Source: Candidatus Bathyarchaeia archaeon (GTDB lineage Archaea > Thermoproteota > Bathyarchaeia > 40CM-2-53-6). Taken from it: a DNA stretch of 64,000 bases. Shown here one piece after another: positions 1-50,745 of this stretch (its first letter is position 1; each line of letters begins with the position of its first letter). Under the pieces are notes generated by a model. The model saw nothing but the letters and a program-made list of their open reading frames with translations. It ran no database searches and was not told where the DNA came from. The position numbers and the translations under genes were made by a program. Location: assembly GCA_049517415.1 (NCBI GenBank), contig JBEKSC010000003.1, forward strand, positions 64,001-128,000. Reading direction: 5' to 3'.

Positions 1-1545
1 TAGTATGGGTGCGGTTTTGAGGGTTACAGCAACTGCGGACGTAGCACCCGTCTCGTCCACACTTCTGGTGAAGACTAAGATGGCTCCGGATAACAAAGAA
101 TACTTTGTGAGGGGTAGTGTTATTTTTCGAAAGACGCGAAGAGGCTGGGCTCCTAATGTTTTTGCGGCGTCCTCAAGTTCCGGTGCTATTCCCTGAATCG
201 AGGCCGCCATCGTACGAACGAAGTAACTGTAGGTTATGGTGGTGTGGGCTAGCACGATTATCCAGAATTCTGGCAAAGCGCCCATGTTGCGCCAAAAGAA
301 GTTCAACGAAACTCCAAGCGCAAGAGAAGGCACGATTATGGGGAGGTCGACGAGAACATCAACGACCCTTGCCATCCTCGTCCCGAACCGGTTCCTCGCA
401 ATCAAGATAGCTACTGGCAAACCAGATCCGATGTTAACGATGGTCGCTAGGACAGCTACCACATAGGAGAGGAGCATACTCGACCAGAAAGCCTTCCAGG
501 GCCCGACTCCGGCAAAGGCATCAGTCGCGGTTCCGCCGGCAACAGCCTCAACTGCTGGTAAGGCAATGAAAAGACATGGGAGAAGGACGAATACTAGAAA
601 CCCGATTAGGCTAATCGCATTCCTTGTTGCTACAACAGGTGACTTGCTTAGTTTTCTTTCAAGATTAGGCCAAACCTTGAGTGGAGCAACCCTGATTCTC
701 GGCGCGATGGTTTTAATCAGTCCGAAAACTACAAGCGACGAAACTATCATGATCAAACTCGCGATAACAACGGCTGACGTTAAGCCTGATCCACGCGCGT
801 TGTTAATGAACACCGTTCCGTTCTCGAATGCTCCGGCCACAACTATAGTTGCCCCTGTTTCTGAGAGTGAACGCGCTAATGCCAACAGGAAGGCGGCCAA
901 TATCCCGGGTCTAAGGATAGGCATTGTGACAGTTCGTACCGCAGTGAAAGCTGAAGCGCCGAGCGTTCGCGCGGCGACCTCGTAGGTCTCACGGTAGTTC
1001 AGAAATTCGCCCACCATTACACGCACAATTACTGGAAATGAGAATGCGAAGTGGAGGAGCATAATCAGTATAACGCCAGGACTCACAATGCTCGTAGATC
1101 CAAATAGTTGTGCGAGACCCACCGGGCTGCTCCAGAACTCCAAGATTGAGAAACCCAAAGCTACAGTAGGAACTATGAATGGAATATCAGCAAGGCTATC
1201 AAGAATTGTTATCCAATGCCCGTGACTTCTAACAATAAGCCAAGCCAACGGGATACCGCCTAAAACATCTAGAGTCGAAACGACCAGTCCAATCACGAAG
1301 GACCATGCTACGGCCCCTTCCATCCTTTTCGCAACGACAGGGCTCAAAGCCAAACTAGGAAGTGAAAAGAGTTGAAAAACTATGCCTGCGATCGCGGGGG
1401 TTATCACGATTAAGATAAAGAAAATGATTGCAATCGAGTATACTCCCTTCGTCACACGAGCTCTAGCCGAGAAGCGTTCCAAGATGAGGAGAAATCGCGC
1501 AGCAACACCCGTTGAGTTGGCAGCCCTGGGGCTTGTGCCCTCCAC
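1..1545 (-). CDS. ABC transporter permease with two TM modules (Fe3+/thiamine/sulfate/molybdate-type importer); 3' end runs off the window start
   Basis: Not in the ORF track; translated by hand on the - strand from GTG 1545. It is hydrophobic with two EAA loops (YEVAARTLGAS, LEDAAKTLGAQ) and two RSLSETGAT/RSVDETGAT motifs. Confidence 0.85.
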   Translation of the reverse strand, partial: MEGTSPRAANSTGVAARFLLILERFSARARVTKGVYSIAIIFFILIVITPAIAGIVFQLFSLPSLALSPVVAKRMEGAVAWSFVIGLVVSTLDVLGGIPLAWLIVRSHGHWITILDSLADIPFIVPTVALGFSILEFWSSPVGLAQLFGSTSIVSPGVILIMLLHFAFSFPVIVRVMVGEFLNYRETYEVAARTLGASAFTAVRTVTMPILRPGILAAFLLALARSLSETGATIVVAGAFENGTVFINNARGSGLTSAVVIASLIMIVSSLVVFGLIKTIAPRIRVAPLKVWPNLERKLSKSPVVATRNAISLIGFLVFVLLPCLFIALPAVEAVAGGTATDAFAGVGPWKAFWSSMLLSYVVAVLATIVNIGSGLPVAILIARNRFGTRMARVVDVLVDLPIIVPSLALGVSLNFFWRNMGALPEFWIIVLAHTTITYSYFVRTMAASIQGIAPELEDAAKTLGAQPLRVFRKITLPLTKYSLLSGAILVFTRSVDETGATSAVAVTLKTAPIL

Positions 1546-1948
1546 CGTTCACTCAACCCAGCAAGCTAGACTTCAGACCACTTATGAACATGGTGCGCTA
1601 AACCTGACATTAAAGATGGAAAACTAGGTTGTTGAATTAGGGCATCATCCTAGTTACTTCTAGAATGGTGGGTAACCAACTACCCTCCTCAGCCAAAGTT
1701 ATTCGGGACGGAGAACCGCTCTCCTCGTTGTTTGCGGGGACGGGCTTTCATGAGTCTTACAGTAACTCTCGCAGCTTTTCGCTGTAGTCTCGTCGGCATA
1801 CCCGAAGCCGCAAATTTCACAGACATACACGATTTTTTGCAGATAACTGATTGTTAGAACCAAGGAACCCACCCTGAAAACGATTTAGATACGTTTCATT
1901 TCAGACGAAGCATGTGCTTTAGGTTTATCTGCCCAGACGTTTCCTCCT

Positions 1949-2863
1949 ATGGTCTGCATGGAGTTGGGTGGCGCAAGGTTGGATCAAGCGGCGTTTGCAG
2001 AGATCGCTTTCGAAAGCGCGAAAGACGAGTATACCGATTTCGCTGTTTACAAGAGGCTATCGGAATTTAAGTTCAAGACCCGTGAATTTAGCAGAACACT
2101 TCGCCGACTTGCCGGTATGGAATACCGTCACTACATTCTCTGGAAGAAGTATTGTCCGGGAAGAAAGCCCACAATTAACAAGCTCACTGTTTACATGATC
2201 GTTCTCCTTAGATTCATCTTGGGTGTAACCTTCGCAGTAAGGTACCTCGAACGGAATGAGAAGAATACTATCAAGAAGTACCGTGATCTAGCGTACATGA
2301 TTCCGTCGAAGGATAAGAAGCAATACAACGAAATGATCGCGGACGAAGAAGAACATGAGATGAAGCTTTCAGATTTCAATGAACCCCAGATCAAATACAT
2401 CTCCTTCATAGTGCTAGGCCTGGCGGACGCGCTAGTTGAAATCGCGGGCATCCACGCTGGCTCACTGGGTATTTACAACTCAACAGAACTGGCGGGGTTG
2501 GCCGGGATAATTGCTGGTGCAGCAGCGTCAGTAGCCATGGCATCGGCCGCGTACGCACAGGCAAAGACTGGTTTCAAGGGATCCGCGGCGCTTTCAGCCG
2601 TCTACACTGGAGTGTCTTACTTCGTTACGGCGGTGATCTTGGCGACACCGTACTTCCTAACGAAGGTTATGTTTGACGCGTTAGGTGCCTCGCTGTTCTT
2701 TGCTGTGCTGCTGATAGCTTTCATAAGCTTCTACGGCGCCGTCATTTCCGGAGCTGCATTCAAGAAGGACTTCATAGAGATTACATGCATAATGTTTGGT
2801 GCGACGATTGCCCTATACTTGCTTGGGACAGCAATCAAGTACTTGACCAAGATAACCATCTAG
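1949..2863 (+). CDS. Rubrerythrin/ferritin-like domain fused to a VIT1/CCC1 metal transporter domain
   Basis: The N-terminal half has E-x6-Y and ExxH motifs (EYRH, EEEH). The C-terminal half has the VIT1 signature IVLGLADALVE and several TM helices. The true start may be TTG 1979. Confidence 0.85.
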   Translation: MVCMELGGARLDQAAFAEIAFESAKDEYTDFAVYKRLSEFKFKTREFSRTLRRLAGMEYRHYILWKKYCPGRKPTINKLTVYMIVLLRFILGVTFAVRYLERNEKNTIKKYRDLAYMIPSKDKKQYNEMIADEEEHEMKLSDFNEPQIKYISFIVLGLADALVEIAGIHAGSLGIYNSTELAGLAGIIAGAAASVAMASAAYAQAKTGFKGSAALSAVYTGVSYFVTAVILATPYFLTKVMFDALGASLFFAVLLIAFISFYGAVISGAAFKKDFIEITCIMFGATIALYLLGTAIKYLTKITI

Positions 2864-2916
2864 AGATTTATCTTCGTCTGGACCACTAAAAGTGACCCAC
2901 CCCCCTAGGGGGCGCC

Positions 2917-2924
2917 TCCAAGCG
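2917..2924 (+). repeat. Target-site duplication, left copy (TCCAAGCG)
   Basis: An identical 8-mer lies directly outside both terminal inverted repeats; the other copy is at 7854-7861. Confidence 0.9.
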
Positions 2925-2939
2925 GGTTCTGGTAACTTT
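2925..2939 (+). repeat. Left terminal inverted repeat GGTTCTGGTAACTTT
   Basis: Perfect reverse complement of 7839-7853. A GG start and GGTTCTG core are typical of IS6-family ends. Confidence 0.9.
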
Positions 2940-3074
2940 GGAGGGTGGTTCTGAGGGCTGGTAACTTCAGGGGGGCACTCAGTTTTTCGGGTAATGTCAC
3001 GTCTACGTTTGGTAGGCCACCTAATTCTTGTTGTAACATTTCGTTTGGTGCTGGTGTTAGTGTGGTTCCTATCG

Positions 3075-3437
3075 TTAGATGTTCCACGTAGAATCACGCT
3101 TTCCTGCGCCACAGGCGGGACACGCATAGTATGTATTGAGTAGACCACGCTCCGTACTAGTTTGAACCTTAACCATCTTTTCATGGCACCTCCAACAACT
3201 CCTACCTAGCGCTGCGAACGGGCCCACTGCTACTATAATCAATAGTCCTCCAACAAGGCCGCCAAAAAATAGGTAAGCTGAAGGGAGACCTACGTACAAA
3301 CCAGTAGAGGAATCGTAGTACTGAAGAGGTACAAAAATTGCTGTTAAAACCCCTAGCAGCAACATCCCGAATCCTATCACGAGAAATGTGACATCATTAA
3401 AACCCCATCTCGACCTCTTCTTGAGTTTTGACTGCAA
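3075..3437 (-). CDS. Cargo: 2-TM membrane protein with C-terminal zinc ribbon
   Basis: Two hydrophobic segments followed by CWRC...CPAC. Confidence 0.7.
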   Translation of the reverse strand: MQSKLKKRSRWGFNDVTFLVIGFGMLLLGVLTAIFVPLQYYDSSTGLYVGLPSAYLFFGGLVGGLLIIVAVGPFAALGRSCWRCHEKMVKVQTSTERGLLNTYYACPACGAGKRDSTWNI

Positions 3438-3536
3438 CGGAGGTGTAGCTCAACACGAGCATTATGGCAGTTGACTATTTACGAGTTAGCAAACAATAAT
3501 ACAAAACGCAAGAATAGAAGATAGAAAGAGTAAGAC

Positions 3537-4103
3537 TTGAAGCCCAAAACGAAATCAAATTGGAAGAAGATTCTGATAACCGCAGTGTTTGTCACACTAG
3601 GTTTGGTAGCAGCCATTGGGTACGAATCATACGCCGAACACCAACAATCACTGTATCCTACGAGTTCAAGCACCGCCGCTCTTCAACCGTCAAATTTTAC
3701 CATGAGCAGCAGCCAAGGTTGCCTAATGAATGAGACAGGGGGAACCTACGACTACTTTGCAATCACCATACGAAATAGCTACAGCGAAAATGTTCGGTAC
3801 CTTAACGCTTCAATCGTCGTCAGTTACATCGACCTGATAAACGATCAAAAGGCTTCCCACTTGTATCCACCACTCAGCAAGCCAATAACGAAGGTCGTTG
3901 AAGGACCTAACGAAACCGTCACTTGGGCATTCCCCATAAACTTCCCAATGTGGGGAACCTATTGGGAACCGCAGTACGCGGGTACGCGGATATTTGGTGC
4001 TAGTTTTACGTTAATTATCTTCTATCAACAAAACGACACGCCGCCCCAAGAGGTCTCCTTTCCTAGAACCTTTTGGGCTATCGACACGCATCCTAATTGT
4101 TGA
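3537..4103 (+). CDS. Cargo: secreted or membrane-anchored hypothetical protein
   Basis: Basic N-terminus plus hydrophobic signal/anchor, an S/T-rich linker and several N-x-S/T sequons. Confidence 0.7.
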   Translation: MKPKTKSNWKKILITAVFVTLGLVAAIGYESYAEHQQSLYPTSSSTAALQPSNFTMSSSQGCLMNETGGTYDYFAITIRNSYSENVRYLNASIVVSYIDLINDQKASHLYPPLSKPITKVVEGPNETVTWAFPINFPMWGTYWEPQYAGTRIFGASFTLIIFYQQNDTPPQEVSFPRTFWAIDTHPNC

Positions 4104-4112
4104 TTCCCGCAC

Positions 4113-4346
4113 TCACTCTAACCATAGTGAAGAGACACCAATCGCACCGAACGCGAGGATAACAACAATTCCCAGTGTACTTACCGCTTCAACTTGAAAA
4201 GATGAAAGTAACGGGCCAAATCCCTCACGCAACAAAGTCGCAACCATTGCATCCAGACTTACACCCAGAAGCGAATAGGGCCATAGTGACCCAAACCAGA
4301 GAGGCAAACTGAAGGTAAGCTCAATGCGAGCATTTTTCCCACCCAC
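4113..4346 (-). CDS. Cargo: possible small membrane protein or gene remnant
   Basis: 77-aa hydrophobic ORF with a weak start context. Confidence 0.3.
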   Translation of the reverse strand: MGGKNARIELTFSLPLWFGSLWPYSLLGVSLDAMVATLLREGFGPLLSSFQVEAVSTLGIVVILAFGAIGVSSLWLE

Positions 4347-4455
4347 GTAGACTCGACGCAGACCCTATGCCCACCAAACGGTTTGTTGCAACACCCAAAA
4401 AATGCGTCACCAAACGCAGACATTACGTTACTGGCTTTCGGGACTTGACGCCAAC

Positions 4456-5058
4456 TCAACTCAACCAAACGCGCACGCACGAACAGAGAAATCGTGCAAG
4501 AACCGAAAACGCCCAAGATAGAAATGGGATGAATCCCTCAAGTGCTATGATTATCAAGGCTACTGCGGAAATGTACATGCTGTACTTAGCATAGATTGTA
4601 TTCCACGTAGTCACTTTGACACTCTGAATCGATTGGCCATCCGGTCCGATTTCATACGAAGTTGCGCCGTCAAAGCTAGTTAGACCCGTGTTCGTGGGGT
4701 CAATCCCTCTGCAAAAGAAAAGACCGAAACCGCTTGAGAGAGCCTCACTTTTCTGCTCTGTAAGGACACGGTCGAACTTGGCGTAGTCTTCTTGCTCCGG
4801 CTTCAGTTGTGGGATATCTACTCGCCAAGTGACAAATTGCCCAGATGTCCAGATGACTCGCATGAATGCACATCCGGAAGGGAAAGGCACTGATTGCAAG
4901 TTCTTGAACTTGAACCGCAAAGCGTAACCTTCCGTATCGACGAAATCTTCACGCTTTCCCCATTTATGCTTGCCCAACCTAAGGAAGGGGGCCTCAGACC
5001 TAATCTCAACTTTTAATCCTAGGCGGTGCTGGACTGTGGCAGAAGTTGTGGTGGCCAA
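4456..5058 (-). CDS. Cargo: hypothetical protein with C-terminal membrane anchor
   Basis: 200-aa ORF with a beta-rich-looking soluble part and a hydrophobic C-terminus. Confidence 0.6.
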   Translation of the reverse strand: MATTTSATVQHRLGLKVEIRSEAPFLRLGKHKWGKREDFVDTEGYALRFKFKNLQSVPFPSGCAFMRVIWTSGQFVTWRVDIPQLKPEQEDYAKFDRVLTEQKSEALSSGFGLFFCRGIDPTNTGLTSFDGATSYEIGPDGQSIQSVKVTTWNTIYAKYSMYISAVALIIIALEGFIPFLSWAFSVLARFLCSCVRVWLS

Positions 5059-5221
5059 GGGAAGAAATCAAGAATTCTTTTGTTGTGCCTCCTTTATTAC
5101 GGCTTCCCAATGTTGTCTTTAGGCTAAGACTTCTTTTTTCTTCTTCTTAGCTTGATTCCGGTTCTGCTAACTTCCGTAGGTGACGATTATGGATTCCCTT
5201 AGTGCTAACTTGCGGGGGAAT

Positions 5222-5506
5222 TCAATGCCAACCAATAGCCAAGAGATACTCAATAATCGCTCCAAGAGAGGCTACCGCGAAACCTATGATTTCCAAGCGG
5301 AAATGCCAATTGACAGTCTGGTAAAGATAACCCACATCAGAACCCCATCCTTTCACGCCATGCCTATTCCGCTCTATGTTTTTGCGCAACAATTCAATAG
5401 CGTCATGATTCGATTTCTCAATGCCCAACTTAGTGATGTATGAGGCAACAGCTAGACATAGAAACAGAATTGCAATAAAGACGAACAGAACTGAAATCAT
5501 GACCAT
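5222..5506 (-). CDS. Cargo: small 2-TM membrane protein
   Basis: ATG start 27 bp downstream of the transposase stop; hydrophobic at both ends. Confidence 0.6.
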   Translation of the reverse strand: MVMISVLFVFIAILFLCLAVASYITKLGIEKSNHDAIELLRKNIERNRHGVKGWGSDVGYLYQTVNWHFRLEIIGFAVASLGAIIEYLLAIGWH

Positions 5507-5532
5507 GGATAAGTTGAAACGAGGAAATAACG

Positions 5533-6672
5533 CTAACCTTTACGAGTTGATTTCTTGATTAGCGACTCCCACATGTTACCAGTAAGACCTAATTCGATTC
5601 CCGCCGCTTGCGCTGGTGTCTTGCCCCCTAGTGCTGTGTGTGGGCGTAGGTAGTCGTAGTAGATACGTTGTCCCTCAATGAATGCGGAATCTGGTTTCTT
5701 GATTGCTCGCATCGTTTTCGATCTCTCCTTGAATGTGCCATGATAGCGTTCCATGCGATTATTGTTCACACGACCCTGAATGCCAATTCCTGAAACATGC
5801 ACCGCATTCGGAAACTCTCTTTGTGCTGCTGGGACATACGACGACAAGCCATCGGTGAGTAGAACCCTTGCATCGGTCTTAGCTACGGCTTTTGCTTCTC
5901 GGAATGCTTCTCTCGCGTCGGCTACGGTTCTGCCTTGCGAAACATGGTTTGCGAGTAGAAATCTTGTGTCGCTATCCATTAGATGCCATAGCCATACCCA
6001 TTGACCCCGAATGTTCACTTTCGTTTCGTCAGCGTGAAAAACCCGTGAAAGTTCAGGATGTAGAGCATCGACATAATCACGCATTAAAGCCACATATTTC
6101 TTAATCCACTTGATGACCGCAACATGGCTTACGTTCACTCCCTCAAACTGTTTCAAGTGGTCAACTATCTTTCGGAGGCTAACGCCTTTGAAATAAAGGT
6201 CTAGCGCGACCGTAATCGCGTGTGGGTTCGTGTGCATCTTCTCGAAACCGTTGTTCTTCGCATCCCACTTGTGCTTGCAGTCGATGCACTTGTACCGCTG
6301 TGTCCGGCTGTTGGCATGATAACGCCAGCCCCACTTTTGGATATGAGTTGAATTGCATCTAGCACATTTCTCTATTGAGCTATCGGATATTTCTGGGGCT
6401 AAGTCTAGGTTCTGAGCTGTTACATGCTCTCGGAAATTCAGAGAGAAGAAAGTCGCGTAAATGTGCTTGCAGGCTACTTGTCTATTCAGGAAGTCTGGGC
6501 ACTCGCAAGCCCAATCTTCTCCCATTCTAGTCACAAGATAATGACCGTTCCCTGATTGTGACTTCACGCGGTAAGCGTTCTCGTTTAGGCGTTTGATTTC
6601 AGTTCCATTAGATAGCATTTCCCACGCACGAATCTGTCGTGCTTCAAGGGTTACTGCCAATTTCTTCACCAA
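5533..6672 (-). CDS. IS6-family DDE transposase with N-terminal SWIM zinc finger and zinc ribbon
   Basis: SWIM motif CECPDF...CKH, CARC...CIDC ribbon, HTH region GVSLRKIVDHL, and DDE motifs HADETKV, LTDGLSSY, NNNRMERYHGTFKER. Confidence 0.92.
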   Translation of the reverse strand: MVKKLAVTLEARQIRAWEMLSNGTEIKRLNENAYRVKSQSGNGHYLVTRMGEDWACECPDFLNRQVACKHIYATFFSLNFREHVTAQNLDLAPEISDSSIEKCARCNSTHIQKWGWRYHANSRTQRYKCIDCKHKWDAKNNGFEKMHTNPHAITVALDLYFKGVSLRKIVDHLKQFEGVNVSHVAVIKWIKKYVALMRDYVDALHPELSRVFHADETKVNIRGQWVWLWHLMDSDTRFLLANHVSQGRTVADAREAFREAKAVAKTDARVLLTDGLSSYVPAAQREFPNAVHVSGIGIQGRVNNNRMERYHGTFKERSKTMRAIKKPDSAFIEGQRIYYDYLRPHTALGGKTPAQAAGIELGLTGNMWESLIKKSTRKG

Positions 6673-6675
6673 TTC

Positions 6676-6734
6676 CTTGTGTGGTGATATTACTGCACAA
6701 GAGTAATATAATGCTTGCGGTGATATAACTGCAC
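6676..6734. promoter_or_regulatory. Two imperfect palindromic operator-like sites flanking an AT-rich TATA-like core in the divergent tnp/orf63 intergenic region
   Basis: TGTGGTGATATTACTGCAC (6680-6698) and TGCGGTGATATAACTGCAC (6716-6734) are 17/19 identical and each has dyad symmetry. TAATATAAT lies between them. Confidence 0.65.
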
Positions 6735-6743
6735 GGTGAAAGC

Positions 6744-6935
6744 TTGGTACGCGCTCGAATTCTAGGCGACTGGGAGAGGAAGATAGTTGAAGCCTATGTT
6801 AAGGGACAACGACTGAAGGGGTACACCGCCTTACTTTCAGACATACGAAAGATGGGATTGAAAACAATCATTGAAGGTTGCGAAAGCGACCTCGCCTTGC
6901 TCAAGAAACTGTTTGCCTTGGAGACTCAACGCTAA
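6744..6935 (+). CDS. Small helical protein divergent from the transposase (candidate regulator)
   Basis: 63-aa ORF with TTG start, just downstream of the second palindrome. Confidence 0.6.
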   Translation: MVRARILGDWERKIVEAYVKGQRLKGYTALLSDIRKMGLKTIIEGCESDLALLKKLFALETQR

Positions 6936-7730
6936 ACAACCATCTTGATAATTTCTTAAAGCCACCTCTCTTAAGGCTTCGCCACAGACGAATCGTTGGG
7001 CGGTCGTAATTTACGTATATTCTGTTCCAGTCTTCTGCCTCAACATAGACACCTTCGTTTGCCGCGTATCTCAATCCTTCGCCCGCTAGAGCGAAATGAA
7101 GCCTATACGTGCTGGCTAATGGGAGTACGACTGGCTTTTCCGTAGCGAGAAAGAGGTTGTTGTAGCCCTTTATAGTATAGAAGCCGGTTGCATAGTGGGC
7201 CCATCCAGCCTTCAGATTTTGCGCATATTTCTTGCACACTACGGAATGAACCGCTCTGGGAATATATTGTTCCAATGCCTCTCCCGTTTGAACTGCAACC
7301 TCTTCGGATTTAGGTTCAAAGAGTACATCCCAAGTGACCGTCTCTGAGACTGGATATCGAATCGAGCGCGGAATATTATGACCACTTACTGCTACAAGTA
7401 GTTCAGCATCTTTGATGTGGCTTTGTTGAACATTGACAGAAAGCATGAATTGCCGAATGATGACTTTAGTCGCACCAAGATTGATTTCAATATCGGTGGT
7501 TAAGGTTTCCTTAGTAAGCTCATCGAGCCAAATGTCAGCACTCGGATGTTCCATAAAAAAACGTATGCTTCTGCCAAGATGAGACCCCCGAACCCTAGTA
7601 CCTCGCTCACAATCAGCCAAAGAGACAGTTTTTCGACTGTTGAGGTTAGAAATTGCTGAACATAGAGTGTCACGCCAATAGCGATTACGAACACTAAAGC
7701 TCCAAGGAATACCAGAAGAGCTGGGCGCAT
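6901..7730 (-). pseudogene. Cargo: 2-TM-anchored protein split by a frameshift at a T7 run
   Basis: The 76-aa TM ORF (7500-7730) and the long ORF (6901-7839) overlap at A7 7555-7561. One extra T joins them as ...AYVFFMEHPSADIW... (about 276 aa). Confidence 0.5.
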
Positions 7731-7838
7731 GAAATGCTGTCCGTCTGTATTGGTATTTAAAACGCCCTAGAAGACTCTCAAGAATTGAGCCATATGAAAA
7801 ACCCCCTAGCCAGTTACCAAACCGAAAAGCCCCCCACA

Positions 7839-7853
7839 AAAGTTACCAGAACC
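7839..7853 (-). repeat. Right terminal inverted repeat AAAGTTACCAGAACC
   Basis: Perfect inverted copy of 2925-2939. Confidence 0.9.
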
Positions 7854-7861
7854 TCCAAGCG
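7854..7861 (+). repeat. Target-site duplication, right copy (TCCAAGCG)
   Basis: Identical to 2917-2924. Confidence 0.9.
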
Positions 7862-7915
7862 TACGCGCGACTTGGAAAGCGCAAAATCAGCCGCGTTTGA
7901 CTCAGAAAACTGAGT

Positions 7916-7950
7916 CACCCCCCCTGGGGGGTCCATCCAAGCGTGCGCGC
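7916..7950. repeat. Second, uninterrupted copy of the palindromic target motif
   Basis: CACCCCCCCTGGGGGGTCCATCCAAGCGTGCGCGC compared with the reconstructed empty site CACCCCCCTAGGGGGCGCCTCCAAGCGTACGCGC. Confidence 0.7.
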
Positions 7951-8081
7951 AAGAAAACTAGGGTGTGGCGCACTCTAACCATGGGTGTTGAAGGAAGCGG
8001 CGCTTAGTTGTTGTCCGCACCACGATATCCGCAGACGGATAAATTAGTTAAGTTTAGGAAATGTTTGTAGGTGCGAAAACT

Positions 8082-8429
8082 ATGCCAAGTATAGAGCCTT
8101 CGATTGAATACGCTGATTTTTCTAGAGTTGACATGAGGGTCGGTCGAATAGTCAGGGTTGAGGATTTTCCCACGGCCAAGAACCCATCGTATCGGATATG
8201 GGTCGACTTCGGAGAACTCGGCGTTAAGCAAACTTCCGCACAGTTAACGAGGTACACAAAGGAACAGCTCTTGAATAGTCTAGTGATAGCCGTGGTCAAC
8301 TTTCATCCTAAGCAAATTGCGAACTTCCTCAGCGAGGTTCTGATCCTGGGAGTTGATGACGAGCCAAAATCCGGCGTTGTCGTACTTCATCCGGAGAGCG
8401 ACGTTCCTCTTGGACGACGGGTCTACTAG
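8082..8429 (+). CDS. csaA: tRNA-binding OB-fold protein / CsaA chaperone
   Basis: DFSRVDMRVGRI, SAQLT, VVNFHPKQIANFLSEVLILG. ATG 8082 is preferred over 8061. Confidence 0.85.
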   Translation: MPSIEPSIEYADFSRVDMRVGRIVRVEDFPTAKNPSYRIWVDFGELGVKQTSAQLTRYTKEQLLNSLVIAVVNFHPKQIANFLSEVLILGVDDEPKSGVVVLHPESDVPLGRRVY

Positions 8430-8858
8430 TCATGCATTTCGTGGCTTGAGCAAGTTGGCTTAGCCGACTGCTTGGATTTGGCGCTGACAAAGATTCATTA
8501 GATTGCATTCGAAAGTTATGGGTGCGGCTTACGCCGTGTGGTTTGAATGCATCAGGAATCACCGCTTAAGGGTATGAACTCGGCCAGCGTCGGCCGATAA
8601 ACTCCCCTATTTTTTAGGGTCCGTCTTATCATCGGCTTGCGACTAAAAAGACGGTTCGCCTAGATTTTCATGGTTGCGAGTTTGGCTCCTGATTACGGGT
8701 ATTGGCATATTGGGCGGTTGTTATGTGCCGAGGATTATGTGCCATATTACCAGTATGACAGAAAGTGTGACGACGCCGAACAGGAAGCCGATCAATAGCA
8801 TTACGAACAGTGCTCTTTGACCGCCGATATTTCACCGTTGCATGTTAACCCACTGTGC

Positions 8859-10397
8859 CTATGGGTGGTCTTGTTCCTTCATAAGGTCCGCCCAAACTTT
8901 TGCGGGTCTCCAGTTGTAGACTACCGTCTTAAGTCGGGTCATTTCTTCTATGCTGTAGCCAATTCCTTCCCTGCCTATGCCTGAATCCTTGTTGCCACCG
9001 AACGGGTAGTAGCCGACACCATGTCGGGGCGCGGCGTTTATCGTAACCTCGCCCTCCTCTAGACGCTTCGCCACTTTTCTTGCGAGGTTGAGGTTATTAG
9101 TGAACACGCATGAATCTAATCCATACCTTGACTTGTTGGCAAGGTCAATAGCTTCATCCACATCCTTCACACGCGCGATCGGGATTACGGGACCGAAGGT
9201 TTCGTCCCACAGAATCCTAGCCTCTAACGGAACGCGATCCAGAACTGTCGGGTGATAGTAGTTTCCTTCATGTTTTCCTCCAGTTAGGATCTTGGCGCCC
9301 TTACCGATGGCGTCTAAGACGAGTCCGTGAACCCTTTCCACAGCACCATGATCAATCAGTGGTCCAATCTTGACGGACGGGTCCCGTGGGTCACCTACTT
9401 TGTATGTTCCAACTTCCTTCAGAACTTTCTCTACGAATACATCCCCGATTTCTTGCTCCACAAGAGCGCGAGACACAGCATCACATCGTTGACCACTATA
9501 ACTTAGCGACCCCTTCACAGTTTCAGTTACAGCGAGATCTATGTCTGCGTCCTTCAGAACGATGGCAGAACCTTTTCCTCCGAGTTCCATGTGTAACCTC
9601 TTCAAGCCGGCGACACGGGCTAGAGTTCTTCCCACTTCCGTGCTACCAGTGAACGTCAACATGCTAATCCTATCGTGACCTGCCAAATACTGGCCGACCT
9701 GTCCTCTGCCCGTAATCACGTTGAGCGTGCCCGCAGGTATACCAGCTAGCTCCAATATTCTTGCGAACATAAGGAAAGAAAGCGGATCCTTACTCGAAGT
9801 TTTCACCACAACTGAATTGCCTGCTAGAAGTGCGGGTATGACTTTAGTGGCGGTGATGTAGAGAGGGTAGTTGAAGGGTGAAATGGCTAAGACAACACCC
9901 AGCGGTTCCCTAAGCACGTCCGCCGACGTGCCCACAGTCTCCTCAGACCAATCCCCTGGTATATGTTCGCCGCGAATTTTTCCGTACTCATCCGGCGTTA
10001 GCTTCAATCGCTCAGCTGTTGCCTTTACCTCCCCTTCCGCATTAGAAATCGGTTTGCCAGCCTCCAGGGTCAGAACTCTGACGAAGTGGTCGATATTTTG
10101 AAGCAGTATTTCGCGTGCCTGTTGGAAGATTTCTATCTTCTTCACAGCCGGAATGGTCCTGATTCGGTTTCTGCTAATATAGGATGATTCGACGGCACGT
10201 TCGGCTTCCCGTTCTGACGCCGATGGAACAGTTGCTATCACACCGTCATCGATTGGGCTTCGAACCTCGATCCTTTGCGGTAGTTCCGCCCACTTGCCAT
10301 CCAAGTACATCCTGAAATCCATCATGCCCGAATTGGACATCGAATAAATGTGGTCGAAGACCGTGCCGAGTTTGACGAGTTTGCTCTTCATTTCCAT
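8859..10397 (-). CDS. gapN: Non-phosphorylating NAD(P)-dependent glyceraldehyde-3-phosphate dehydrogenase (archaeal GAPN-type ALDH)
   Basis: ALDH motifs PFNYP, FTGS, ELGGK, GQRC and ETFGP, plus the IPGDW...REPLGVV segment characteristic of archaeal GAPN. Confidence 0.85.
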   Translation of the reverse strand: MEMKSKLVKLGTVFDHIYSMSNSGMMDFRMYLDGKWAELPQRIEVRSPIDDGVIATVPSASEREAERAVESSYISRNRIRTIPAVKKIEIFQQAREILLQNIDHFVRVLTLEAGKPISNAEGEVKATAERLKLTPDEYGKIRGEHIPGDWSEETVGTSADVLREPLGVVLAISPFNYPLYITATKVIPALLAGNSVVVKTSSKDPLSFLMFARILELAGIPAGTLNVITGRGQVGQYLAGHDRISMLTFTGSTEVGRTLARVAGLKRLHMELGGKGSAIVLKDADIDLAVTETVKGSLSYSGQRCDAVSRALVEQEIGDVFVEKVLKEVGTYKVGDPRDPSVKIGPLIDHGAVERVHGLVLDAIGKGAKILTGGKHEGNYYHPTVLDRVPLEARILWDETFGPVIPIARVKDVDEAIDLANKSRYGLDSCVFTNNLNLARKVAKRLEEGEVTINAAPRHGVGYYPFGGNKDSGIGREGIGYSIEEMTRLKTVVYNWRPAKVWADLMKEQDHP

Positions 10398-50316: not shown

Positions 50317-50745
50317 ATGCTAGAAGCCTTTCTTAGAGTCGTGATCGTGATCTTACTAGGATTCCTGTTCGCGTATCTGTATGGCTTCATCGAGCACGGC
50401 TACATTCCCCCCGCAGAGCATCTCAAGCTGCGATTTTTCAACCACTTCGCGAATTACCATATCATCATGTTCGGCTTGTTTTCAGCGATACCCTTGGTGG
50501 TTTTGGTGTTCAGTACGAACGTCTCAGGGGTTCTGTCAAGTCTTGGATTGTGGACGTACCTCCCGGTTGGAGAAGACATTGCCTGGTACCATTTCGCTGG
50601 TACGTGGCCTAAGCCTGAAGATTGGACCTCTTGGGGTGGGGGATACTACCTTCGAGGAAGATGGTTGCCACGATGGTATATCATCAATCTTGGGTTAACG
50701 GTCGTGTTTTTCGGCTTGGCCTTAGCTCTCAGCCTATACAGCTGA
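50317..50745 (+). CDS. Membrane hypothetical protein
   Basis: 3-4 TM helices, YH and ED..W motifs. Confidence 0.7.
   Translation: MLEAFLRVVIVILLGFLFAYLYGFIEHGYIPPAEHLKLRFFNHFANYHIIMFGLFSAIPLVVLVFSTNVSGVLSSLGLWTYLPVGEDIAWYHFAGTWPKPEDWTSWGGGYYLRGRWLPRWYIINLGLTVVFFGLALALSLYS

Follow-up and report, generated by a model that had tools for sequence, protein, structure and literature searches.

Insertion sequences of the IS6 family are known as short, transposase-only elements that carry genes between two copies, whereas the archaeal branch treated here routinely holds 1-4 kb of cargo within one end pair—how is such cargo assembled, and how does it reach its site? The locus that raises this question lies in a 64,000-nucleotide stretch of a Candidatus Bathyarchaeia archaeon (GenBank assembly GCA_049517415.1, contig JBEKSC010000003.1, here C3:64001-128000 of a 2.65-Mb genome), which we call the window; positions without a locus name are counted within it. 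At 2925-7853 the window holds a 4,929-bp element with one intact transposase gene. Here we argue that the element probably consists of nested members of one family, moved as one piece by a single transposase that likely seeks out G-runs.

Boundaries and nested anatomy

The ends of the element, and the transposase gene between them, are as follows.

2917..2924 (+): target duplication, left copy, 8 bp, exact match to the right copy
2925..2975 (+): outer end, downstream of the transposase gene (right inverted repeat, IRR); bipartite, with two TAAC...G-run sites; likely from element A (below)
5533..6672 (-): transposase, 379 aa, with SWIM finger, zinc ribbon, predicted helical region (helix-turn-helix-like), and DDE domain
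7803..7853 (-): end upstream of the transposase gene (left inverted repeat, IRL); bipartite
7854..7861 (+): target duplication, right copy, 8 bp, exact match to the left copy

The 4.9-kb segment is a real cargo-carrying, IS6-like transposon bounded by terminal inverted repeats (TIRs) and a target-site duplication (TSD). As a first-pass annotation of the window had reported, the TIRs (2925-2939 and 7839-7853) are identical over 15/15 bp and the duplication over 8/8. On extension the TIRs agree at 31/40 positions; this is the sole pair of perfect 15-bp inverted and 8-bp direct repeats up to 10 kb apart in the genome, where about 4e-4 such pairs are expected by chance. The open reading frame (ORF) of the transposase is likewise intact, with D215, D274, E308, and K315 present. 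No second copy of the element was found in the genome; in contigs from four sequencing runs the element is identical, and its depth is flat and at single-copy level.

The same annotation had described a single simple unit. We find instead the ends and remnants of three family members: a nested end pair (2990/4432), a third end (5160), and a relic transposase (5068-5119) had been overlooked, as had the host repeat in which the element landed.

2990..4432 (no strand): sister unit C, nested, transposase-less, with GGTAAC-type ends that match GGTAAC-type sisters
5068..5119 (-): relic of a second transposase gene (element A), comprising its final ~15 codons; detected through DNA similarity to the L178 transposase gene at its 3' end
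5160..5218 (+): inner end, oriented like the 2925 end and facing the transposase; likely the IRR of core B (5160-7853)

At locus L178, a 62.7% homologue of the ORF at 4456-5058 comes immediately after an end of this type, and the spacing from end to ORF equals that of the window once unit C is removed; the two arms then align. The 3' end of a transposase gene lies upstream of that homologue in L178. Unit C, which begins 65 bp inside the outer left end and is missing from the L178 arm, has ends that are mutually identical at 40/60 positions and a duplication decayed to 6/8 (2982-2989, 4433-4440). Nesting at such a distance recurs: the 295 unique ends include 13 nested pairs of equal orientation, and in 10 of these the offset is 57-72 bp, with five at 64-65. 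The relic scores 61 as DNA against a best shuffle of 40 (0/2000 shuffles as good), and the arm 2925-5159, which ends in these last codons of a second transposase, matches the L178 arm. At L103 the same layout of an inner plus an outer end is found, with the duplication on the outer pair. On these alignments we read the arm 2925-5159 as a remnant of element A, 5160-7853 as core B, and the whole as a composite of three family members; the exact 8-bp duplication around 2925-7853 then implies that the whole composite arrived in one event.

The proposed history starts from an element A laid out as outer end, ORF 4456, and transposase A, an arrangement still seen in L178. Core B (5160-7853) would have inserted at the 3' end of the transposase A gene; the B transposase would then have paired its own IRL with the outer end of A, which has the same motif, and mobilised the composite, giving rise to a fresh 8-bp duplication. 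The remainder of element A would have been dropped as the composite moved to its present site, and at some point the non-autonomous unit C would have inserted 65 bp inside the end of A. Read in this way, the locus records a build-up of cargo in which sisters enter sisters and the outermost ends are reused.

Sister units of equal design are common, which bears out the annotated cargo-carrying, TIR- and TSD-bounded IS6-like unit. Transposase matches occur in 27 of the 41 genomes searched (own genome included), the threshold of E<=0.001 is passed by 1082 candidate proteins out of 3393, and the archaeal records that share the end type are mostly Bathyarchaeia by title. A census of our own genome and the collected loci, in which family-type ends and an 8/8 duplication were required, supplied the further TIR-bounded segments that the annotation had named as a check: 43 units, of which 31 encode a single full-length transposase (2031-5317 bp, with a median of 3280) and nine have no transposase match (187-3338 bp). 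One 2748-bp sister occurs at two sites in 100% identical form, each time within a perfect TSD that differs from the other, which indicates that cargo units move whole. Units are also stacked; gaps between back-to-back ends equal 8 bp in 46 of 56 counts (295 unique ends), with 26 distinct 8-bp tip-to-tip junctions.

Several individual loci add to this picture. An array of at least four units at L037:4785-15101 has the same palindromic 8-mer, in one copy, between its units and holds two identical 2644-bp copies in opposite orientations, and other transposase-less units with 8-bp duplications lie in our own genome at C4:109415-109767, C17:49935-51190, and C11:57748-58306. Similar ends were seen in Methanoregulaceae and Nitrososphaerales/Nitrosopumilus records (L107, L111, L115, L102, L109), with a transposase fragment in L107 only.

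Landing sites and competing histories

The element interrupts an intergenic host repeat, and a G-run stands at a set distance from its end.

2877..2924 (+): host repeat (~70-bp intergenic repeat), partial copy, cut by the insertion; nhmmer profile from 12 copies
2908..2912 (+): G5 run; it stops 13 bp short of the element end, in one of two registers that are modal for the clade
7880..7950 (+): host repeat, second copy, complete; same nhmmer profile

There are 15 copies of the host repeat (0.04% of the genome), two in the window and 13 on other contigs, and it is present in several genomes of the same genus too. It is made up of A-tracts, a C6-G5 hairpin, and a GCGTGCGC tail, with a mean pairwise identity of 0.76 over 12 copies; its consensus fold is weak, and it has no Rfam match. 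Three further family ends (L103, L153, L222) lie in the same repeat family. We do not call the repeat a casposon end, as no copy adjoins any of the four cas1 matches. Some 60 bp past the second copy (7951-8012) are common to the copy at C1:78365-78427 and one relative, extending beyond the repeat itself.

The G-run can be followed across the family. Scans by end type gave 19 and at least 131 stretches. A first flank test covered 95 of 146 scan loci, with this element, short flanks, and duplicates excluded, and its 93 unique ends yielded 89 flanks. Among the matches listed, GGGG occurs within -22..-7 in 32/89 flanks against 3/89 at -60..-45 (Fisher p=2e-8; identical flank sequences were counted once, but kinship among hosts and recurrent sites leave the flanks non-independent, and the p-values are optimistic), and the runs end mostly at -13 and -6. 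A second test covered all loci and only those ends that touch no other end. For this end type, again among the matches listed, GGGG stands at -16..-13 in 21/127 flanks and at -9..-6 in 26/127; in the same two registers the GGTAAC-type ends give 0/34 and 0/34 and the other ends 1/60 and 1/60, together 1/94 each. A run within -19..-6 precedes 8/10 complete units of this type compared with 0/33 others. The end type corresponds to one transposase clade (support 100/99; 6 of 29 tree rows, with two of the 31 units excluded for internal stops), and the G-run occurs twice in each end of this clade. Additionally, positions -3..-1 are rich in C, as would suit a roughly symmetric site. For GGTAAC-type ends, GTAAC stands at -27 in 12/36 free flanks; many of these are seemingly one shared host site, and the support they lend is weak.

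These patterns suggest that the transposase likely recognises landing sites beside G-runs at a fixed distance. It would read a roughly symmetric site in which G-runs end at -13 and -6 relative to the new end; since G-runs occur both in the clade's own ends and in the GC-hairpin repeats of the host, insertions would collect there. A version in which the G-run mimics an end in tip-to-tip geometry was rejected, because the C-runs it predicts at about -27 to -32 are not enriched.

The link to G-runs may also be indirect, through a host protein on G-tract repeats, extruded GC hairpins, or the survival of insertions. C4..G4 hairpins lie within 40 bp of 15/127 ends against 2/124 farther out, the host repeat is intergenic, and IS1202-family elements are found 5 bp from XerC sites, possibly through a bound protein (PMC10132070; this and all papers cited below are drawn on in part, and what we say of them refers to those parts). 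Other clades in the same hosts, however, are without the pattern (1/94 per register), the registers at -13 and -6 are sharp in a way that survival alone would not set, and G-runs are also the clade's own sub-terminal motif. We therefore regard an indirect link as unlikely, and direct recognition by the transposase as the better account.

Several observations weigh against the composite, G-run-seeking history as a whole. Most flanks of this end type have no run in either register—about half would be expected without one, as a site has two ends—and two of the ten complete units have none. The nesting offsets of other clades (64-65 bp) deviate from the G-run rule, so the footprint of a bound protein may matter for nesting. 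No partner duplication for the 5160 end was found, so that the step of B into A is putative; the family HMM scores the relic at 5068-5119 weakly (E 0.24), and the alignment to L178 does not cover the ~40 bp that separate the relic from the 5160 end. The closest genome homologue (79%), at L021:7143-9414, has 15/15 ends but mismatched flanks, which suggests adjacent deletion or recombination between copies. Confidence in the predicted transposase structure is poor in the DDE region (pLDDT 62), and the putative regulator described below, a 63-aa protein, matched nothing in Pfam, the Atlas, or the fold comparison (best Z 4.0). Finally, the contigs of the four runs contain no empty allele, circle, or cointegrate joint, although contigs drop rare variants.

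The missing duplication partner of the 5160 end could mean that the composite formed in place, by adjacent deletion or recombination of neighbours, or that this end comes from a fourth, decayed unit. Family members do stack and rearrange, as the 26 tip-to-tip junctions and the mismatched L021 flanks attest, and deletion of adjacent DNA is known for IS6 members (PMC6807381). The perfect duplication around 2925-7853, by which the whole composite arrived in a single event, argues against an origin in place, as does the L103 arrangement with its duplication on the outer pair; we think such an origin quite improbable. Arrival as one composite is the reading we retain.

Insertion at this site appears to be younger than the split from related genomes. 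In 7/7 relatives, one of them 94% identical there, neither element nor repeat follows the left flanking gene; absence from the matching locus places the insertion after that divergence. The recent insertion proposed by the annotation is thus loosely supported, with no empty allele in the four runs to set beside the relatives, all of which runs are possibly the source of this DNA. The precise empty site that the annotation had sought was not found—the matching locus in the seven relatives lacks both element and repeat—and no circle or cointegrate junctions came to light in the contigs. These hold one joint, from 5670 to 7824 (30-bp side), which probably stems from a related truncated element. 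Among the runs listed as containing the element, none are of RNA. Strand transfer may proceed by cointegrate or copy-out; resolved cointegrates resemble simple insertions.

Transposase, cargo, and regulator

Is the element an IS6 member? The catalytic residues D215, D274, and E308, with H311 and K315, conform to the IS6 signature of a DDE triad followed by K/R with a His near the catalytic Glu (PMC6807381). Against the NCBIfam IS6 model NF033587 the transposase scores 134.7 bits (cut-off 125); six of ten sister transposases pass as well, and IS6 is the top model in 10/10. The IS1 model NF033558 gives 57.3 bits, below its cut-off of 100, and 41-62 bits for the ten sisters. Passenger-carrying relatives of IS1 are known as the ISMhu11 group. 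The ends have the IS6 pattern of a ~14-bp TIR with G at 1, 2, and 7, a pattern that IS1 ends show too (PMC6807381). The 8-bp duplication agrees with IS6 in this element, while the sister-unit census presupposed 8/8 and is hence no independent test. In the narrow IS6/IS26 definition of Harmer and Hall—~790-880 bp, a transposase with no extra N-terminal domains, long and archaeal members excluded (PMC6807381)—the element has no place, with its 4929 bp and a 379-aa transposase with SWIM finger and zinc ribbon. Nor is it a pseudo-compound transposon with two complete insertion sequences in direct repeat, as only ~15 codons of the second transposase remain. The IS6 assignment of the annotation therefore holds in the broad sense (NF033587, DDE signature, ends, duplication) and fails in the narrow IS26 sense. 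Judged from sequence, it would work like an IS6 element that carries passengers and whose insertion is directed by ends and motifs.

Ahead of the DDE domain, residues 150-203 form three predicted helices (pLDDT 61-81) with no significant fold match. By sequence, no relative with a solved structure was found; the best Foldseek row, ISCth4 at E 7e-3, was obtained on a weak model and hence was not used.

The cargo ORFs are distributed over C, A, and B as follows, a hydrophobic segment being one with Kyte-Doolittle >=1.7.

3075..3437 (-): cargo of C; 120-aa product with a CxxC at its C terminus and two hydrophobic segments; the collected loci contain no homologue
3537..4103 (+): cargo of C; 188-aa product with a membrane anchor at its N terminus; a sister unit on contig C6 has a 28% homologue
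4113..4346 (-): hydrophobic ORF of 77 aa, doubtful; no homologue found
4456..5058 (-): cargo of A; 200-aa product anchored at its C terminus; structural neighbours are Ig-like but weak; the L178 element has a 62.7% homologue in the same position
5222..5506 (-): 94-aa ORF; two hydrophobic segments; no homologue found
6901..7554 (-): soluble cargo ORF of 217 aa; a -1 shift likely connects it with 7500-7730
7500..7730 (-): 76-aa cargo ORF; two hydrophobic segments; overlaps 6901-7554 at a T7 run (7555-7561)

Six of the seven cargo ORFs have hydrophobic segments, in line with the membrane-protein cargo of the annotation; the exception is 6901-7554. This ORF and 7500-7730 are likely linked by a programmed -1 frameshift or slippage that would yield a membrane-anchored form: the slippery T-TTT-TTA at the T7 run is identical in the L190:1521-2371 homologue (43-52%), and in the homologue P0128 both parts are fused in one frame. 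Coupled restart at an adjacent ATG is an alternative. The four cargo ORFs with homologues and the regulator vary most at third codon positions and hence are likely genes.

Where the cargo comes from can be judged by its relatives. No cargo protein has a Pfam or NCBIfam match over cut-off, word-index searches returned the query protein itself as the sole match, and no relatives were found in viral contigs. Homologues lie mostly inside other family elements (L178, L190, contig C6), one at L070 being without detected ends nearby, and so the cargo looks recirculated. The gene-capture vehicle of the annotation stands as far as the carrying of cargo goes; capture from the host chromosome is at most a possible source. 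A simple transporter insertion sequence gathering host membrane-protein genes one by one would suit the single intact transposase, perfect ends, flat single-copy depth, and L070 homologue, but is very unlikely given the nested ends, relic transposase, and third end, the homologues within L178, L190, and C6, and the lack of matches to the 6901-7554 family in 300 other genomes of the class.

Sister cargo is varied: 72 sister-unit ORFs were scanned (70 cargo, two transposase pieces), most with no Pfam match, and those matched include DNA methylases, an AAA ATPase, and peptidases. The sister units L154, L135, and L167 carry DNA methylases (one with a weak Mrr match) and an AAA_15/21 ATPase, possibly as defence cargo.

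A regulatory module stands beside the transposase gene.

6744..6935 (+): 63-aa three-helix protein, divergent from the transposase gene, likely a repressor; in 14 of 31 transposase-bearing units
6681..6732 (no strand): two 16-bp palindromes (6681-6696, 6717-6732), likely operators, 36 bp apart and flanking a TATA-like box

The 63-aa protein has a confident three-helix predicted fold, is 60-73% identical to 16 aligned homologues, and occurs across all end types. The palindrome pair with a TATA-like box lies between regulator and transposase gene in 14 of the 15 loci displayed. Among 23 regulator hits—two with no palindrome and one with a single palindrome—helix-2 classes, among them YNTLLWRI, YTTL(L/F)TRI, YTVLLHRI, and Y(S/T)(A/G)LL(S/F)(D/H)I, pair with their own palindrome arms, a covariation judged by eye and without statistics. 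The protein thus likely represses the shared divergent promoter via the two operators. This agrees with the regulatory module of the annotation, repression being the part that we infer.

Relation to known systems

Non-autonomous cassettes are known as MITE/MIC-like units. Unit C and the nine transposase-less units (187-3338 bp) resemble them in consisting of ends plus cargo only; unlike such cassettes, they are part of an archaeal family that is IS6-like, and they are found nested within sisters.

The nearest published relatives are the long zinc-finger IS6 members, which form clades h and i in Varani et al. (PMC7986276) and VII and VIII in Harmer and Hall (PMC6807381). They share with the archaeal units a DDE domain with an N-terminal zinc-binding extension, GG-initial ends, G at 7, and an 8-bp duplication; as described, they are 1.2-1.76 kb and mostly Clostridial, whereas the archaeal units are 2.0-5.3 kb and differ in their varied cargo, SWIM finger, bipartite 50-60-bp ends, divergent regulator, and clade-specific target motifs. 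ISDsp3, the one IS6 member with a passenger that the part of PMC7986276 drawn on names, likewise has one transposase and a passenger between one end pair and an 8-bp duplication. It is 1456 bp long with one passenger; here there are dozens of multi-gene units, non-autonomous units, nesting, and arrays.

Use of a resident end as target is shared with the targeted conservative integration of IS26 and with IS3- and IS30-family insertion beside inverted repeats (PMC7986276). For the IS26 reaction the ends must be identical, and no copy is gained (PMC7986276); here, in contrast, sisters that have diverged enter 8 bp outside an end or ~57-72 bp inside it and create a new duplication, and host G-tracts are entered too. 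The IS1202 family shares a single DDE transposase, an extra end-proximal binding site, and a fixed distance to a host motif; its TGT ends, 5-bp duplication, and dif targets differ, and the description drawn on mentions no cargo (PMC10132070). The insertion sequence families listed for Thaumarchaeota include no such cargo units in the part of that survey used (PMC6563490). In the literature covered, to which subscription journals, ISfinder, and the supplements of the IS6 papers did not belong, no description of the family was found.

What appears to be new at this locus is the nesting history, the clade-specific G-run target rule, and the operator code. Tentatively, we propose an undescribed archaeal family in which each clade's end motif would be its target signal, giving rise to stacking, nesting, exchange of cargo and ends, and integrase-free arrays; with equal caution, the signals would be G-runs here and GTAAC/GTTAC in a sister clade. 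If so, the clades would amount to a natural collection of large-cargo transposases, each a single protein that can be re-targeted, and the helix-to-operator code of the accompanying repressor would be legible from sequences. If target choice follows the binding motif of the clade, target selection by IS6-like elements could be tested by domain swaps between clades, and the location of variable islands in these uncultured archaea would be explained.

Some minor observations concern the surroundings. A scan of window positions 1500-9500 against Rfam gave 0 matches at E<=1. Family end-like matches elsewhere in the window lie at 50529 (+) and 48732 (-), both without partners. The element is flanked by genes for a rubrerythrin/VIT1-like membrane protein (1949-2863, weak matches) and a CsaA chaperone (8061-8429).

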